Under the pieces are notes generated by a model. That model was not told where the DNA came from and ran no database searches. It saw only the letters and a program-made list of their open reading frames with translations. Made by a program: the position numbers and the translations under genes. Positions 6,781 to 20,930 of a stretch of DNA of 64,000 bases are shown piece by piece. The first letter of the stretch is position 1. Each line of letters starts with the position of its first letter. The DNA comes from Cyanobacteriota bacterium (GTDB lineage Bacteria > Cyanobacteriota > Cyanobacteriia > Thermostichales > Thermostichaceae): NCBI GenBank assembly GCA_033764955.1, contig JANRIL010000048.1:64001-128000 (forward strand). The letters run 5' to 3'.

Positions 6781-7497
6781 ATGGCAGAAAAAAATAATCC
6801 CATTCAAAAAATTAGTTATTTTGACGAGGGGTATCGCGCCCAAAAATTTGCTCAACTGCATCAAAAAAAGGATGTTTTCTTTGTGCAGGTTGGTGGCATG
6901 GATGGCAAGCAGTTTGATCCCATTTATCCTGCTGTCCAAAGGTATGGCTGGTCCGGCTTAATTGTGGAGCCATTGCCTGATTTATACGCCCTCCTTTGTC
7001 AAACCTATCAACCCTATCCTCAAATTATTTTGGAAGCCTGCGCTATCACGGAAAGCTCAGGTTGGGTGACTATGCATCGCATTCCCTTAGCCATTGTAGA
7101 AGATGGATCCCTACCGGATTGGACAACGGGAATTGCATCGGTGCGAGAGGATGAGAATCGCTTAGGAGGTATCCGCAAAGATAGTCTTCTGTATGAGAAA
7201 ATCCAACCCTATTTGGTTCAGGAACAGGTGGTAGGGCTAACGCTTGCTGAGCTGTTGGTCAAGCATCATGTTAAACAAATGGATGTCTTACAGATTGATG
7301 CTGAGGGCATGGACTACCATATTTTGAAGCAGCTTGACTTTTCAACCTATCAACCCTATCTAATCAACCTAGAATTTGCGAATTTACCCGAGTCAGAACA
7401 ACTGGCTACCCTTGATTTATTGGAGCAGCATGGCTATCGTTATCGCTGTGAAGCAGGACATGGGTTAGATTTATTGGCCGAGCGCTTGCTAGAATAG
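6781..7497 (+). CDS. FkbM-family methyltransferase
   Basis: FVQVGGMDG..FDP, GLIVEP, LQIDAEGMD motifs. Confidence 0.88.
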   Translation: MAEKNNPIQKISYFDEGYRAQKFAQLHQKKDVFFVQVGGMDGKQFDPIYPAVQRYGWSGLIVEPLPDLYALLCQTYQPYPQIILEACAITESSGWVTMHRIPLAIVEDGSLPDWTTGIASVREDENRLGGIRKDSLLYEKIQPYLVQEQVVGLTLAELLVKHHVKQMDVLQIDAEGMDYHILKQLDFSTYQPYLINLEFANLPESEQLATLDLLEQHGYRYRCEAGHGLDLLAERLLE

Positions 7498-9137: not shown

Positions 9138-10304
9138 TTATTTTATCGAGAATTGTCGCCATGCTGAACTGAACAAATAGGCGATAACTTGAGAACGATA
9201 CGGCAAATTCCAAATCACTCGTAAGAACTCTATCCAATCCGGTTTAGCAAAATCAGCTTGGCAAGGGTAATTGGCACAGTAGTAGTGATAAGCCACTTGA
9301 TAGTTTTTTATATTTAGGCTAAGAACCCGAATGGGTTTAGAGGGATGCATCATACCCCATAGTAAAGCCGTCTGTTGCCAGGATATTTTTATCTTTGAAA
9401 TAGAATGAACAACTAAATCATATTCTGGCTGTTGAGCAAGATATTCGGGTAAAAGGTTATGCAGAAACTTTAAGCCAACTTGCAACGATAGCAAAGTATG
9501 GGAGCAGGTTGCTATTTGGATTAACTCGTGCCAGTTAATAGATTCAGAATGAGCAAAAATCATGCAAGCATCTGCAATCCATCGTAGAGGTGGAACATCA
9601 TTCCATGCCAATCCATGTGAGATAACATGTAATAGCAAATCTATTTTATTGAGAGTTTGAATTTCCCTCCCTTGGAAGTAAGCTGTTTTTGCTCTTTGCC
9701 AAGGATCATAACCGGGAAACAGAAACCAATGTAGATCAATCTCATAACCATATTGATTATGAAATGCTATAGAACCAAACCGATATTGAATCATATCCTT
9801 AGGAGTTTCGTTTATTCGATTCATGATTTCCGGATATTTAATATGCCAGCCAGCATTTAACAAAATATTGATAGCCAGAGTAATAGAATTAGATGGAATC
9901 AAGATATCAATATCCTGCATCGGACGAAAGCAAGGGCTAGAGTAAAAACCATCTGCCACTAGGGAAAATCCCTTAAGAAACAGTATGGGTATACCTTGAT
10001 GTTCCATTACGTCAATAACTTGTTGAGCAAAATAAAATAGGAGTTGATTACTAAAAGAAGCTTTACGGCGGATGCCTCTTAATTTCTGAGTTAAATCATC
10101 CCGAATGGAACAACTTTCAAGGTTATATGATAAAAGTGGAATTAATTTCAAACTACCTGCATCAAGGTTGTCAATGCTTTCATATTGACGCCATGTTGTC
10201 CAGGCTGACCCTACTTGTTTGGGATCCCTTGATAGTGCTGCCGTCAAGAGAAGCTTCTGGCTAGAATTGGGCAGGCTGTTACCTTGATAATTTCTAGTTT
10301 TCAT
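9138..10304 (-). CDS. nucleotidyltransferase family protein (NTP_transf_5-like)
   Basis: LFLKG...RPMQDIDILI, EIDLHW, LLLHVISHG, RWIADA motifs. Confidence 0.88.
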   Translation of the reverse strand: MKTRNYQGNSLPNSSQKLLLTAALSRDPKQVGSAWTTWRQYESIDNLDAGSLKLIPLLSYNLESCSIRDDLTQKLRGIRRKASFSNQLLFYFAQQVIDVMEHQGIPILFLKGFSLVADGFYSSPCFRPMQDIDILIPSNSITLAINILLNAGWHIKYPEIMNRINETPKDMIQYRFGSIAFHNQYGYEIDLHWFLFPGYDPWQRAKTAYFQGREIQTLNKIDLLLHVISHGLAWNDVPPLRWIADACMIFAHSESINWHELIQIATCSHTLLSLQVGLKFLHNLLPEYLAQQPEYDLVVHSISKIKISWQQTALLWGMMHPSKPIRVLSLNIKNYQVAYHYYCANYPCQADFAKPDWIEFLRVIWNLPYRSQVIAYLFSSAWRQFSIK

Positions 10305-10992
10305 GCCAACCTCGCCGCCGATCTAAGATCTTTTTGAGGATTCCTGGAAAATATTTTGGGGCAGGATCTCGTCGGCACAAGTTATTCTGATGCACCCGCC
10401 GCAACAGAACAGTTTGAGGCAACATCATTTCAACAAGTTTTTGGTCTTGAGCACGGGCATACCAATCCATAAAAAATCCACTATCAAAATCACCTATCTT
10501 CTCAAAAGAACAACGGTTGATCAGCATTGCCCCTCGTAGATAGCCACAGACAGGTTGCTCGTTAACTTTTAGTTTAGAACGCTCCTGTTCACTTAGATCT
10601 GGGCTAATAAATTGCTGTACATGACCAAAAACCATATCAACGTCTGGATTCTTCTGCATGGCATCTATTTGTGCAGATAGCTTTCGAGGCAGCCAAATAT
10701 CATCAGCATCGATAAAAGCTAAATAATTTCCCTGAGCCAGACGGATCCCTTGTTTAAGAGCTTCGGAGGCGCTATCTTTTGACTCCCAACATCCCTGCTT
10801 AACATAGTGAACAGGTTCTCCAAATGATTGAACAATAGAAGCAGATTGATCTGTAGAAAAATCATCAACAACAATAACCTCTAAAACAGGATAATCCTGA
10901 TCAAGAATAGATTGTATAGCATCACGAATATAAAGCTCACCATTATACATGGGTATAACAACACTAACTTGGAATAGGTTGGATAAGTGCAT
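10294..10992 (-). CDS. glycosyltransferase family 2
   Basis: SVVIPMYNGE, VVDDFSTD, AFIDADDIW. Confidence 0.92.
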   Translation of the reverse strand: MHLSNLFQVSVVIPMYNGELYIRDAIQSILDQDYPVLEVIVVDDFSTDQSASIVQSFGEPVHYVKQGCWESKDSASEALKQGIRLAQGNYLAFIDADDIWLPRKLSAQIDAMQKNPDVDMVFGHVQQFISPDLSEQERSKLKVNEQPVCGYLRGAMLINRCSFEKIGDFDSGFFMDWYARAQDQKLVEMMLPQTVLLRRVHQNNLCRRDPAPKYFPGILKKILDRRRGWHEN

Positions 10993-11030
10993 ATCTAAAG
11001 TTCACAACTAAGATGTGGTGAGAGGTTCAG

Positions 11031-11924
11031 TTAATTCAACCAGCTTGATAGATCAGTTTGTATCAAATCCTGAAGATGAAGAATGTCATCACGAAAATAT
11101 TCAGTAAGTTCTCCTCTCATATCCAAATCTAGGGGAGGAATGGTTTGTTTGGGTAAATAATGAGATAGGCGGAGAGGCCATTGTACATAAGGTTCAAGTT
11201 CAGGGTTAAACATTGTTCTTCCATGAATGAATACAAAAGCTTTTCTGTATAAGAGGTTACCAAAAAGAATTTGACCTAAGAGAGGAAACTTGGGGATCCA
11301 GCCCGGATTTGAGTGAGGAAACTTTATGTCAAAAGATGAGATTGATAGAAAGGAAAAGATTTTTTCAAGAATTGCAACTTGTTTTTCTTGAACGTGTGTG
11401 GTTAAATCCTCAAATAAAATGGGCAAAACTTGGTCTTTATCAAAAAGATTGTAATATCGTTTGAGGCAACTGAAGTACATGCCTCGTGCTCTATAATTAA
11501 AAGGACCCGCCTCTGAGCTATTCTTCATCGCCAAATAGAAATCTAAACCAGACTCTCTACCTAAACGAACTTCATGGTTAAAGTGAGCATAAGCCCGATC
11601 AACAGGATGACGAAGAGTAGCTAGAAGTTTCACCTGAGGGATGAGTTTATTAATGCGCTGGGGAGCGTTAGGGCAAGAAAGATATGCAGTTGTTGCTTCT
11701 CCACATAGCTGACCCTCTTTAGCCTCCTCAAAAAACTGACTATACTTTCTCACTTCTGGGGTAGACATTAGATTATGATTTTGCCAGCATGGTAAGTCTT
11801 TATTAAAAAATCGAAGCTCCTTAATTTGACTCATATAAATATCGGGATGTTGGGCAAGAAAGTGGTATAGGGATGAACTGCCTGCTTTATGTGCACCAAT
11901 AACTAACAGATTCGGCAGTTTCAT
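11031..11924 (-). CDS. sulfotransferase (heparan-sulfate N/3-O-sulfotransferase-like fold)
   Basis: 5'-PSB loop IGAHKAGSSSL, GEATTAY, 3'-PB motif LRHPVDRAYA. Confidence 0.9.
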   Translation of the reverse strand: MKLPNLLVIGAHKAGSSSLYHFLAQHPDIYMSQIKELRFFNKDLPCWQNHNLMSTPEVRKYSQFFEEAKEGQLCGEATTAYLSCPNAPQRINKLIPQVKLLATLRHPVDRAYAHFNHEVRLGRESGLDFYLAMKNSSEAGPFNYRARGMYFSCLKRYYNLFDKDQVLPILFEDLTTHVQEKQVAILEKIFSFLSISSFDIKFPHSNPGWIPKFPLLGQILFGNLLYRKAFVFIHGRTMFNPELEPYVQWPLRLSHYLPKQTIPPLDLDMRGELTEYFRDDILHLQDLIQTDLSSWLN

Positions 11925-13066
11925 GGAAATCCTTCTCCGTCCAATTGCTGATAAATGCGGCTAAAAGTGCTAGCACAACGATCTAAACTGAATATTTCTA
12001 TGGAGCGGCGACGGGCTGCTAGACCCATATTTTCTGCAATTTGTGGATGCTCAAGCAGATGAATAACTGAGGATACTAACCCTTGCTGATCATCTCGCTC
12101 AATCAGTAAGCCCGTTTCATTGTCCACAACAATTTCTGGGATCCCACCATCTCGCGTGGCAACAATTGGTCTTGCCATCTGAGCTGCTTGCAGAGCCACA
12201 AGACCAAAAGGTTCATTCCAACGAGAGGGCATTAAAATTATGCTAACAGAGTTTAGCAATGCGGCTACCTTATCTTTTTCAACCCATCCTAAAAATTTAA
12301 CTTGGTTGCTAATCTCTAAAGCCTCAACAAGATCAACTAAAGCAGGCATTTCTGGTCCACCGCCTGCAATGATCAGTTGACAATCTGGAATTTTTTTTAA
12401 AATTGAGGGCATAGCTTTTATTGCTAAATCAAATCCTTTATGTGGAACAATACGACCCAAACATAATAGCTTAGGGGGACTAAAAGTAATTGTTTCGGGG
12501 ATAGCATCAGGAATATAAAGACCATTATAGACAAGTTCAGCCTTATGAGAGATTTCGGGGAAAACCGCTAAAAAATCCTTCATGAGTGATTCTGATACGG
12601 CAGTTATTCGCTGAGCTTTACTTAAAACCTTTGTAATTATGGACTCCGAGTTGATTGTAATTTCAGGGTGAAAAATTGGATTAAGTGGTGAATGAAGAGA
12701 ATAAAGAATAGGTATATCCTTGATTTTTGACATCCTTATTATTCTTTCAAAAAAGAATATACTTGGAGATTGAGTATTAACATGTAAGATATTAGGATTA
12801 AACTTAACGATGATCTCACAAATTATTGTAATTAGATCTTTCATTCTCTTGAGATCATGATCATCGAGGATTTTACGAAATGGGAAACGATGTACGGAAA
12901 GATTAGTATTGGTGCTGTCTGGAAGATCTGATTTACGAACTTTGTTGGAGGTAATAACGCAAAACTGATGCCCCTGTTGACAGAGGTAAGTGATCAGATC
13001 AGATGATAGGATCTCAACTCCTCCAATGTCTGGGAAAAATTGCTCGGACCAGTAAAGCACTTTCAT
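11921..13066 (-). CDS. glycosyltransferase family 4
   Basis: IGGVE, GRIVPHKG, EPFGLVALQA, GGIPEIV. Confidence 0.92.
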   Translation of the reverse strand: MKVLYWSEQFFPDIGGVEILSSDLITYLCQQGHQFCVITSNKVRKSDLPDSTNTNLSVHRFPFRKILDDHDLKRMKDLITIICEIIVKFNPNILHVNTQSPSIFFFERIIRMSKIKDIPILYSLHSPLNPIFHPEITINSESIITKVLSKAQRITAVSESLMKDFLAVFPEISHKAELVYNGLYIPDAIPETITFSPPKLLCLGRIVPHKGFDLAIKAMPSILKKIPDCQLIIAGGGPEMPALVDLVEALEISNQVKFLGWVEKDKVAALLNSVSIILMPSRWNEPFGLVALQAAQMARPIVATRDGGIPEIVVDNETGLLIERDDQQGLVSSVIHLLEHPQIAENMGLAARRRSIEIFSLDRCASTFSRIYQQLDGEGFP

Positions 13067-13068
13067 AG

Positions 13069-14181
13069 CTAACTTAATAATAAATCAAAAACACACTGGT
13101 AAACTGCTTTTAGATCCTGCCCAACCTTAAACTGATAAACAGGCAACTGCTTAACTAGCTTACCTATACTTGTGAAAGTCCAATCCCTTGATCCGGCTAA
13201 GGATGTTAGAATTCTTAAGGTGCTAGGGGCTAGGGTACGGATCCCTTGAGTCGGGCTAGCAAGTATTAGCTGACTAGAATGACTATCCACGATTTGTGGC
13301 ATCAGTATAGCTTTAATTGGTAATGAAGGCATAACTCTCTCAGGGGTATGTTGTGCAGTGAATAACACTGCTTTCTCGTGATCCCAAAAAGAGAAAGAAG
13401 GTAGCGGTTGATCCAATCTTTCAAAGAGTTTTTGACTGTTAAGAGAAAGTTTTCCTGTGTTGTATAAGCTAAAAACTCTTGGATCAGGTTCTAATGAAAC
13501 CATACAAAAATCATCACTGATATAGTTCATACCCTGATGCCAGCAAGCTAAGGCAGTGGTTGACTTACCAGCTCCACCATCTCCTACAATTAAAATACAG
13601 CTCTGTGAAGTGCCAACTGCCGCAGCGTGCAAAAAAAACAACTGTTTCCTTTCTAGCCACCAGAGCAGTATCCTAACAAGCGGTGCAGCTCTTTCATAAC
13701 TAATATCATAATTCTCAAAATCATGGATGCTTTCCATCCAAAATATGCCCTGCTGAGAGCGGAAATCTAAGATATTGATGACTTTAGGTTGAGTGCCAAT
13801 TGTTACTTTAATGTGATCTTTACAATTGTTCGCAACTTGTCCCGCACTCCAATAGTCAGCATGAGAAATTCCCAGGCTAGGTATAGCCATATTTGTTGAG
13901 TGGGCATCCCAGATAAAAATGGTCAAGGCAGGCTGACTTGACTGGGATGAGCTTTCTTGATCCGATGGTTTCCATGATAGATGGGCAAAAGCAGGTGTGA
14001 GGCAGTCAACCAATGATGAACCAATAAAGTTTAACTGAATATGGTAGCCAGCTATTAAGTAGTTTTTTACCGTTATGTCAGAAATGTCCCTGATTTTTTG
14101 AAATTGCTCAGTGACTGCCCAATATACTTTATGACTAGGGTCATATTCTGACATAATCAATTTTTGGTTACGATCGGCCAC
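13069..14181 (-). CDS. HPr-kinase-like serine/threonine kinase
   Basis: FLHAAAV..ILIVGDGGAGKSTT Walker A and YISDD, the HprK C-terminal domain signature; start could be 14154. Confidence 0.85.
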   Translation of the reverse strand: MADRNQKLIMSEYDPSHKVYWAVTEQFQKIRDISDITVKNYLIAGYHIQLNFIGSSLVDCLTPAFAHLSWKPSDQESSSQSSQPALTIFIWDAHSTNMAIPSLGISHADYWSAGQVANNCKDHIKVTIGTQPKVINILDFRSQQGIFWMESIHDFENYDISYERAAPLVRILLWWLERKQLFFLHAAAVGTSQSCILIVGDGGAGKSTTALACWHQGMNYISDDFCMVSLEPDPRVFSLYNTGKLSLNSQKLFERLDQPLPSFSFWDHEKAVLFTAQHTPERVMPSLPIKAILMPQIVDSHSSQLILASPTQGIRTLAPSTLRILTSLAGSRDWTFTSIGKLVKQLPVYQFKVGQDLKAVYQCVFDLLLS

Positions 14182-14594
14182 CCATCCTCGCCAACCTCAT
14201 GAATGGGATCAAGGACAAGTAGATGCTGCATGTCAGCATAGCATTCTAACTTTGGAGCCTCGTAGACGATTTTTGTAGTTTCAGTAGTGGTAAGATTAGT
14301 AGCTAGTTCATCTGAAAGGCTATCTTTCATGATAATAAGTTGATACTCGTGTAGATGATCCAAAAATGTTTTTACATCAGAAGCAAACCCAAGTGGAGGA
14401 TCCCTGAAAACCTGGGGTATTTTACTAATGAGTTCATCCAGTGATATTCCCTCTTCCAGAAATCTCCAAATTTGTGTTCCTGACTGATTCAGACTAAAAT
14501 AAAGACCTGTTTCTAGATAAACAACAATAACTTCATCTCCGAAGTCTTCATAGCTGATTGCGGTGGAATTAATGAGCACAGTTTTGACATCCAT
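14157..14594 (-). CDS. PqqD-family / RiPP recognition element protein with C-terminal extension
   Basis: EVIVVYLETGLYFSLNQSGTQIWRFL..DVKTFLDHLHEYQLI is the PqqD/RRE pattern; tail YEAPKLECYADMQHLLVLDPIHEVGEDGWP. Confidence 0.87.
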   Translation of the reverse strand: MDVKTVLINSTAISYEDFGDEVIVVYLETGLYFSLNQSGTQIWRFLEEGISLDELISKIPQVFRDPPLGFASDVKTFLDHLHEYQLIIMKDSLSDELATNLTTTETTKIVYEAPKLECYADMQHLLVLDPIHEVGEDGWPIVTKN

Positions 14595-19982: not shown

Positions 19983-20930
19983 ATGAATGCCTCCTCCTCC
20001 AGCCTGCCCGTCGGACTCTTCATCAGCCAATTTTTGCGAGAACGGGAACGGGATTTAGCCAAAGCCAGCCGACGCACCTACCAGATGGCCTTGACTCAGT
20101 TTGCCGCCACCTGTGAACTGCCACTGGATCAAATTCAACCTCTGCATATTCAGGCTTTTTTGAATAGTTTGAAAGGACGACCCTTCAAAAACAAAGCGGG
20201 ATCCCTGATTTATCCTCCGGCTTCCCCTGCCACCTACAACCTGAAGCGGCTGGCTCTCCAGCAATTTTTTGAGTGGGCGCAGGCTCGCGGATATTGCCAG
20301 CCTCCCTTGCCCACCCAGGTTATTCGCGCCGCCCGCCTCCCCCCCCGCTTGCCCAAAGATCTGGATCGGCTCTTGCTGCAACGAGTGCTAACCCGCGCCC
20401 AAAGCCATTCACTGCGTTATACCGCCTTGTTGCGGGTCATGTTGGAATGCGGTCTTCGCGCTCAGGAATTATTGGATTTAACAGTGCAGGACTTTCAGCA
20501 ATCTCCCGAAGGATCAACTTTAGATATCCGTTCGGGTAAGGGCAGCAAACCTCGCTCGGTGGCCGTGGGGGATCCCTTAGCCGATCTGCTCCGCGACTAT
20601 CTTCAGCAGGAACGCGGACTCTCTGCCCCTACGGATCCTTTGTTTGTCTCCCAATCTCGCTGCGCCGACTATCAGGGCAAACCCCTCACCTATGACGGGC
20701 TGCGTCACATTGTTTTGAAGCTCACCGAAGCAGAACCTGGGCAGCAAACCCCCCACCAATTCCGCCATAGTTTTGCCACCCTGCTCTTGGATCATGGGGT
20801 TGCCCCTGAGCATATTCAACATCTGCTGGGTCATACCACCGCTGCTATGACCATGCGCTATACGCAACGCGCCAACCTGCGGGCGGCGATTGCCCGTTCC
20901 CGTGAAGTCTTGGATCAAGGACTGATCTAG
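19983..20930 (+). CDS. tyrosine recombinase (XerC/XerD-like)
   Basis: complete catalytic set: GLRAQE, GKGSK, HQFRH, LLGH, TMRY; N-terminal SAM-like region. Confidence 0.9.
   Translation: MNASSSSLPVGLFISQFLRERERDLAKASRRTYQMALTQFAATCELPLDQIQPLHIQAFLNSLKGRPFKNKAGSLIYPPASPATYNLKRLALQQFFEWAQARGYCQPPLPTQVIRAARLPPRLPKDLDRLLLQRVLTRAQSHSLRYTALLRVMLECGLRAQELLDLTVQDFQQSPEGSTLDIRSGKGSKPRSVAVGDPLADLLRDYLQQERGLSAPTDPLFVSQSRCADYQGKPLTYDGLRHIVLKLTEAEPGQQTPHQFRHSFATLLLDHGVAPEHIQHLLGHTTAAMTMRYTQRANLRAAIARSREVLDQGLI

Follow-up and report, generated by a model that had tools for sequence, protein, structure and literature searches.

The locus described here raises the question of what a set of enzymes otherwise known for tailoring lasso peptides does where there is no lasso cyclase. 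It lies within a 64-kb window (the whole stretch analysed; positions 64,001 to 128,000 of contig JANRIL010000048.1, assembly GCA_033764955.1, from a cyanobacterial genome), in which six open reading frames (ORFs), all on the minus strand and spanning positions 14594 to 9138, encode a PqqD-like protein, an HprK-like kinase, a GT4 glycosyltransferase (GT), a sulfotransferase, a short GT2 and an NTP_transf_5 enzyme (NTase). The PqqD-like protein is a recognition element (RRE) for peptides made on ribosomes and modified after translation (RiPPs) that continues into a conserved tail. We consider the chances about even that in this RRE-tail protein a precursor and the RRE that recognises it have been fused, making it a self-loaded, phospho-glycosylated substrate or carrier protein.

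The RRE-tail protein (145 aa; positions 14157..14594, minus strand) is a core component of the cassette and was analysed in alignments A1-A3 and A5, by Foldseek and in an AlphaFold2 (AF2) model. Its winged-helix RRE domain (residues 21-87; 14334..14534, minus strand) matches the Pfam PqqD family PF05402 with an E-value of 7.8e-14. The RRE profile matches TbiB1 with 69 bits, PbaB1 with 54, TfuB1 with 34, LppB with 30 and PqqD with 17, the chain identities of 9x90/9x8z being those given in PMC13381572, and the best Foldseek matches of the model are TbiB1-leader complexes. By sequence, the RRE profile is nearer to lasso B1 proteins than to LppB. A linker of 20 residues (12-25 residues across relatives) leads from the RRE to the motif Y111-x-x-P114-x-L116 (14247..14264, minus strand). 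Lasso RREs bind a YxxP-type leader motif, [Y/W]xxPx[L/V/I/A/F/Y] (PMC13381572), and a [FYW]xxPx[hydrophobic] motif is present in register in 127 of 133 alignment rows. In the AF2 model, residues 111-120 have a predicted local distance difference test (pLDDT) score of 96, with a strand at 116-119, and because these residues are ordered the leader motif probably occupies the RRE's own cleft. It is followed directly by a core, D121-P140 (D-P-I-H-E-V-x-E-x-G-W-P; 14175..14234, minus strand), with a pLDDT of ~59, which is a candidate acceptor or docking site. Residues D121, H132, G138, W139 and P140 are invariant in all 133 rows and D129 is present in 132. Across 45 paired loci the tail has a pairwise identity of 0.70, compared with 0.36 in the RRE and 0.37 in the kinase, the core being about twice as conserved as either domain. 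Single-domain proteins have a median of 8 residues past P140.

A second tail subtype, L-A-L-D-P-P, without the His, is present in L018 (G046:C24), P0068, P0070, P0071, P0089, P0094 and P0166. It adjoins its own divergent kinase, three GT4 genes and an NTase, and one genome carries both subtypes. Asp129 and Asp121 are the residues that the two subtypes share.

The initial annotation had noted that the region has no free precursor ORF. No credible one was found, but a precursor-like peptide is present after all; no precursor ORF is visible because the leader-plus-core tail is fused to the RRE. Searches with a tail-only hidden Markov model (HMM) returned 114 matches, of which 113 are fused to an RRE, in 108 loci that had been chosen for a full-length protein, and the sole unfused match carries an in-frame stop in the linker. 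The host genome has a single tail-HMM match and no second copy of the tail was found there. Among 47 candidate relatives of 30-71 aa there were 19 matches; the 18 examined resemble C- or N-terminal pieces of the fused protein, lying for the most part on short contigs, and were rejected as true small genes. Three short tail relatives are located on long contigs (P0236, P0238 and P0243). Overall, the sequences suggest that free tail peptides may be rare at most. In the window there is no credible free leader-bearing small ORF. Of 148 small ORFs, three fit the loose motif, but two of these overlap larger genes, in antisense or out of frame, and the third is ~9 kb away.

Tandem relatives separate the leader from the core. 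There are 19 proteins with two or three RRE repeats, in which a leader-like motif (loose pattern) is present in 40 of 46 repeats and the core is retained in a single repeat of each protein. One further pattern match, the twentieth, was discounted as it overlaps a leader site. Five multi-RRE proteins end in a kinase and have the core in the first repeat. Fusions of 780-850 aa in which three self-leadered RRE repeats are joined to an HprK-like kinase were recorded as P0078, P0082, P0084, P0085 and P0088. An AF2-type model of a natural 3xRRE-kinase fusion has a predicted TM-score of 0.76, with the leader strand of each repeat ordered and core residues 129-137 at pLDDT <50. As one core is kept alongside many leaders, the models and alignments suggest that the cis leader completes each RRE structurally and that the core has a separate function needed only once. 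An ordered leader next to a disordered core, in the protein alone and in the fusion, is also what would be expected of a substrate segment.

The most consistent partner of the RRE-tail protein is the HprK-like P-loop kinase (13069..14154, minus strand), a core component of 361 aa if read from ATG 14154, the most likely start, 2 bases past the RRE stop codon. The match to Hpr_kinase_C is weak (E 3e-4, below the cut-off), and H176, the Walker A segment G191-K197 and D214-D215 are conserved in 45 alignment rows. In 54 of the 68 loci that have downstream sequence, the first gene recognised after the RRE-tail gene is the kinase. Among 401 genomes of the host's phylum, RRE-tail and kinase profiles pick out an identical set of 27, in equal copy numbers, and this co-occurrence holds even where the two genes are on different contigs. 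The kinase profile was built in part from those 27 genomes, although the absence of kinase-only genomes does not follow from this construction. A single family accounts for 13 of the 27, so these genomes are not independent. In Chloroflexota (301 genomes) the RRE-tail is present in 4 genomes and the kinase in 7, with three carrying both. The four kinase-only genomes have one frameshifted cassette with a tail, one lasso locus and two weak kinases without an RRE; one RRE-tail is near a contig start with no kinase within 12 kb, and one genome has a second RRE-tail copy with an NTase and a GT2 and no kinase nearby. The match in Chloroflexota is therefore close but imperfect. Together, these gene distributions argue strongly for a kinase/RRE-tail partnership. 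Complex prediction for kinase and RRE-tail gave a score of 0.57, whereas the best of three controls had 0.00; contact agreement was at least 84% and the partner pLDDT 78. In a benchmark the mark was reached by 116 of 157 solved pairs and 2 of 215 mismatched pairs, although at scores of 0.60 or below there were only 18 solved pairs and both mismatches, and the prediction thus gives weak support for binding. A tree built by a quick method put the kinase of the window within a mixed set that includes cyanobacteria, where it has a long branch, and no donor could be named. A version found throughout one lineage, the small genomes of family f48 of the host's phylum (L031-L038), has the order NTase-kinase-RRE-tail followed by long runs of GT genes; the kinase there is ~500 aa and ends in an additional, weakly RRE-like part, and the leader has often lost its Pro, with D-P-I-H-E kept.

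A profile of 73 relatives identified 1,578 clusters (50% identity) at E<=1e-30. Carriers include Chloroflexota metagenome-assembled genomes (MAGs), a deltaproteobacterium, a Gaiellaceae MAG and one cultured organism, Crinalium epipsammum PCC 9333, in which the cassette is on plasmid pCRI9333.04. We annotated 109 loci with local HMMs, of which 33 were kept after collapsing at 70% RRE identity and requiring 3 kb on both sides. That homologues might not stay clustered had been named as grounds for rejecting the initial annotation; in these 33 loci the kinase is present in 31, GT2 in 31 and NTP_transf_5 in 28, followed by GT4 in 14, an ABC exporter in 10 and a short-chain dehydrogenase/reductase (SDR) in 5. 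The sulfotransferase was found in 2, an undercount as the local HMM is small, and B2 (the transglutaminase-like leader peptidase of lasso clusters) and cyclase/AsnB genes in none. On this sequence evidence the six-gene set is a widespread, conserved and unstudied family that recurs as a unit, in which the sulfotransferase, GT4 and exporter are optional. The sulfotransferase and GT4, earlier treated as core, are therefore better regarded as accessory.

The absence of a cyclase, B2 or CxxxCxxC (radical S-adenosylmethionine) gene nearby, as first reported, was borne out by searches of the window and the genome. The host genome is 89% complete, and absences from it are to that extent unproven. Within it, no B2 (PF13471) was found, the local B2 HMM also returning nothing, and profile searches found no lasso cyclase of the asparagine-synthetase-like type. 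There are two weak PF00733 matches, which we take to be MnmA-like and LarE-like proteins, and one match of the local AsnB/cyclase HMM that presumably starts like GlmS; none was accepted as a lasso cyclase, as they look like other ATP-pyrophosphatase-like proteins and GlmS. No ORF of at least 200 aa with a CxxxCxxC motif is present in the window. B2 was found in none of the 109 loci; of 32 carrier genomes, 5 have it above the cut-off, each time on a contig other than that of the RRE. PF00733 matches occur in 12 of the 32. Only in the one closed genome do such a match and the RRE share a contig, and there they are megabases apart. An AsnB-like gene is present in one of the 109 raw loci, L039 (919-2469), inside the cassette on a 4.6 kb contig without B2; the encoded protein has an N-terminal Cys like AsnB. 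The set is thus not always paired with a cyclase, and the proposal that it works without lasso macrocyclization stands.

These data bear on the idea that the enzymes are orphan tailoring enzymes whose substrate, a free precursor or lasso peptide, is encoded elsewhere, or are the remains of a decayed lasso cluster. The similarity of the RRE to lasso B1 proteins and the incomplete genome would fit such an origin. Nevertheless, the RRE probably has its cleft filled in cis, the genome yielded neither a tail nor a leader as a free peptide, 27 of the 32 carrier genomes have no B2 above the cut-off, and all the genes are intact in a set conserved across phyla. A real lasso locus, L171, differs in having a tail-less RRE beside B2 and a much weaker kinase score. 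This explanation is largely refuted and we regard it as very improbable.

No SipW-type peptidase (TIGR02228) is above the cut-off in any of the 32 carrier genomes, with none in the host genome, whereas the profile passes it in 4 of 14 controls, and the unassigned ORFs of the cassette loci include no recurrent peptidase family. An exporter is absent from the window locus, and the best remote match, on contig C11, was rejected as a cassette exporter, having host-like GC and unrelated neighbours. A true RiPP, in which a housekeeping protease cuts off the modified tail for export as a short phospho-glycopeptide, is consequently unlikely, even though the anatomy is precursor-like, the core is near the C-terminus in single-domain proteins and a peptide-type ABC exporter accompanies 10 of the 33 loci. 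An internal core in the kinase fusions, combined with the lack of a peptidase, argues against a released peptide, and the window locus has no exporter.

For the self-loaded precursor or carrier, the following sequence of events can be envisaged. The F/Y-x-x-P-x-L motif would fill the protein's own leader cleft, as modelled, and so hold out the core, flexible and invariant, to the HprK-like kinase, which would phosphorylate it, most plausibly on His132 or Asp129, residues proposed because none with a hydroxyl group is conserved there. By analogy with the action of PsmN on pseudomycoidin, the NTP_transf_5 enzyme and the dedicated short GT2s would then build a sugar chain on the phosphate, and optional GT4, sulfotransferase, methyltransferase and redox enzymes would vary the glycan. 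As the set has no peptidase, the end result is probably still a small protein carrying its modifications, or else the tail is a reusable primer that hands the glycan on. There are precedents for parts of this: PsmK adds phosphate first, followed by PsmN-dependent additions of +162/+324 Da to pseudomycoidin (PMC6993621), and LppK polyphosphorylates its peptide without any cyclase (PMC13381572). The fuller proposal, a protease-free, RiPP-derived protein glycosylation in which the invariant His or Asp is phosphorylated and extended to a phosphate-linked, sometimes sulfated oligosaccharide, is offered only tentatively and seems more doubtful than the fused-precursor assignment itself.

Several observations weigh against a modified tail. 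The window copy has no Ser, Thr or Tyr in residues 122-140, the core has no conserved hydroxyl residue and 23 of the 133 rows have no Ser or Thr at all after D121. Position 120 is Thr or Ser in 113 of 133 rows, Ala in the window copy, and resembles a helix N-cap. The D-P-P subtype (L018, P0068, P0070 and P0071) lacks the His and keeps the same enzymes, so His cannot be the universal acceptor. RiPP cores are usually variable, and near invariance would suit a docking site as well as a core; the conservation of the tail is also inflated by profile selection, although a search starting from the kinase still gave the same genomes. No model places the core in the kinase active site (the complex prediction listed no individual contacts), and an exporter is present in just 10 of 33 loci and not at the window locus. 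The HprK-type RiPP kinases characterised in the literature covered all act on Ser. Either the chemistry is unusual (phospho-His or an acyl phosphate) or the core is a docking motif and the substrate is elsewhere.

The latter corresponds to an unmodified adaptor, in which the cis leader locks the RRE in a bound, active state and the tail is a docking motif that brings together or activates the kinase and transferases. Phosphate, sugar and sulfate would then be added to another molecule, whether a protein of the host, a lipid or a glycan of the cell surface. We consider this possible, and the main rival of the self-loaded precursor or carrier. It would explain a core with no conserved hydroxyl acceptor, positioned more than 600 residues from the C-terminus in kinase fusions, and the extreme tail conservation would suit an interface; the number and type of GT vary widely and sugar-nucleotide enzymes recur. 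LppB is insoluble without a leader (PMC13381572), so the cis leader may simply stabilise the fold. Against an adaptor, the core is disordered beside its kinase in the fusion model, and a leader followed directly by a conserved segment is the anatomy of a precursor. Moreover, no other conserved substrate candidate, polymerase, flippase or lipid carrier enzyme recurs in at least 3 of 82 non-redundant loci, except for genes in 3 loci that we take to be ABC-2 permease-like.

The closest documented systems are the linear polyphosphorylated peptide (LPP) clusters that Bacillota carry, with genes lppA/K/B/S/D/N (Popov et al., Nat Commun 2026, PMC13381572). Both systems combine a discrete lasso-like RRE, an HprK-like kinase and an NTP transferase without a macrolactam cyclase, both have a YxxP-type motif, and both have surroundings rich in glycosyltransferases, the LPP clusters often being in capsule loci (PMC13381572). 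The LPP clusters, as described there, have a free precursor, YxxPxVLxHQxIxFETxxS, with variable C-termini and Ser3 as acceptor. They also require a SipW-like signal peptidase of archaeal type to remove the leader, have a pump resembling MsbA, and are restricted to Bacillota. In contrast, the cassette has its leader and an invariant, Ser-free core fused to the RRE, no peptidase and a dedicated GT2 as a core component, and its hosts include cyanobacteria and Chloroflexota. No small ORF resembling the LPP precursor was found. The cassette works like an LPP cluster but is not a member, as the SipW-like peptidase, the free Ser-bearing precursor and the pump are all missing. With the paeninodin and pseudomycoidin clusters (PadeK, PsmK and PsmN; PMC6993621) it shares an HprK kinase with a DD metal site, an NTP_transf_5 enzyme with DxD and a B1-like RRE, and it differs from them in having no cyclase, B2, free precursor or C-terminal Ser. 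As in lasso clusters generally, an RRE (B1) and a leader motif are present, but here the motif is fused in cis.

An uncharacterised cassette designated HPr-rel-A contains an HprK-like kinase (TIGR04352) with a PqqD-like protein (TIGR04353) and a nucleotidyltransferase. The window kinase scores 37.8 bits against TIGR04352, for which the cut-off is 200, and the window RRE has no TIGR04353 match at E<=0.1. Of the PF05402 proteins, 21% are longer than a discrete RRE and have no other domain, and the available sections of the report (PMC12710340) do not describe a fused leader in them. The literature searched (titles and abstracts, with supplementary tables and most subscription journals outside its scope) describes no RRE with a fused leader and this core, and the arrangement is apparently undescribed in it. 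The suggestion that the locus is a new modification system is therefore upheld in part: the fused tail appears to be new, but a cyclase-less set of RRE, HprK and NTP transferase was already known from the LPP clusters (PMC13381572). The cassette extends the phospho(glyco)-RiPP toolkit as a variant.

A large orphan family thereby gains a defined candidate substrate, encoded within the RRE itself, and the precursor would be hidden in a gene annotated 'PqqD family protein', where precursor-hunting tools would miss it. The cassette also bears on what NTP_transf_5 enzymes do, LppN having shown no activity and the role of PsmN being unresolved, and on why HprK/RRE/NTase sets are located among glycosyltransferases, and it shows a route from RiPP machinery to protein or glycan modification. 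If the core is indeed phosphorylated and then extended with sugars, a new linkage (N- or acyl-phospho-glycosyl) and protein-primed glycan assembly would extend over >1,500 sequence clusters.

Of the remaining cassette genes, the short GT2 (232 aa; 10294..10992, minus strand; Glycos_transf_2, PF00535, E 7e-30) is a core component of a cassette-specific subfamily, scoring 264 bits against the cassette GT2 HMM compared with 86 for the next paralogue in the genome. The subfamily has conserved C-terminal residues W177, R180 and R199-x-H201-x-x-N204 and 1-6 copies per locus. The NTP_transf_5 gene (PsmN/LppN-like; 9138..10304, minus strand; PF14907, E 5.7e-36), also a core component, encodes a nucleotidyltransferase-fold enzyme in which D131-x-D133 is intact; the two Asp residues are present in 29 and 31 of 39 rows. 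The DxD is degenerate in some second copies, possibly pseudo-enzyme partners; two NTP_transf_5 genes or a degenerate-DxD copy were noted in L016, L021, L022, L028, L029, L056 and L072. The host genome has one PqqD gene and one NTP_transf_5 gene. The GT4 (11921..13066, minus strand; Glycos_transf_1, PF00534, E 2e-39) is an accessory but cassette-type enzyme, with full-length relatives, 32-40% identical, in other cassette loci. The sulfotransferase (11031..11924, minus strand; Sulfotransfer_3, PF13469, E 1e-8, or PF00685) is a rare accessory, and other sulfotransferase types are present in L015 and L042. An NAD epimerase is encoded in 11 loci, and SDR and gluconolactonase genes also recur.

The six genes were first noted as co-oriented, tightly coupled and more AT-rich than their flanks, and re-examination of the ORFs, Pfam families, junctions and composition confirmed this. 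The RRE/kinase and kinase/GT4 junctions are 2 nt each, GT4 and the sulfotransferase overlap by 4 nt, a gap of 38 nt precedes the GT2, and the GT2 and NTase genes overlap by 11 nt. The GC content is 0.38-0.41 over 9-15 kb compared with 0.515 genome-wide, and that of third codon positions (GC3) is 0.30-0.35 in all six cassette genes compared with 0.47-0.58 in most flanking genes. When 60 relatives were examined, a full-length RRE-tail was present in 1 of 22 same-family genomes. Given its low GC and GC3 and patchy presence among relatives, the six-gene block is a horizontally acquired island. The GT2-GtrA gene reported to follow does lie in the same direction, but with a host-like GC3 of 0.53 and, at E<=1e-10, no counterpart in the collected loci other than the window, it is probably a host gene and not part of the unit. 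A scan of promoters and terminators was uninformative (12 promoter-like sites compared with 18.6 expected, and 9 terminator-like sites compared with 5.6), and a repeat search returned just short, chance-level pairs and no insertion borders.

Other features were noted around the cassette. One gene away, an FkbM methyltransferase gene (window 6781-7497, plus strand) has an intermediate GC3 of 0.43 and contains an exact 17-nt direct repeat (7002-7018 and 7344-7360). It may be linked to the cassette, as FkbM genes (~25% identical) are also present within the cassettes of L022, L023 and L169. A tyrosine recombinase/integrase-like ORF, recognised by eye at window positions 19983-20930 (plus strand), is ~5 kb from the cassette, with no link to the island shown. 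Elsewhere, at G000:C11:18822-28700, a type I-E-like CRISPR-Cas locus with its array was also recognised by eye.

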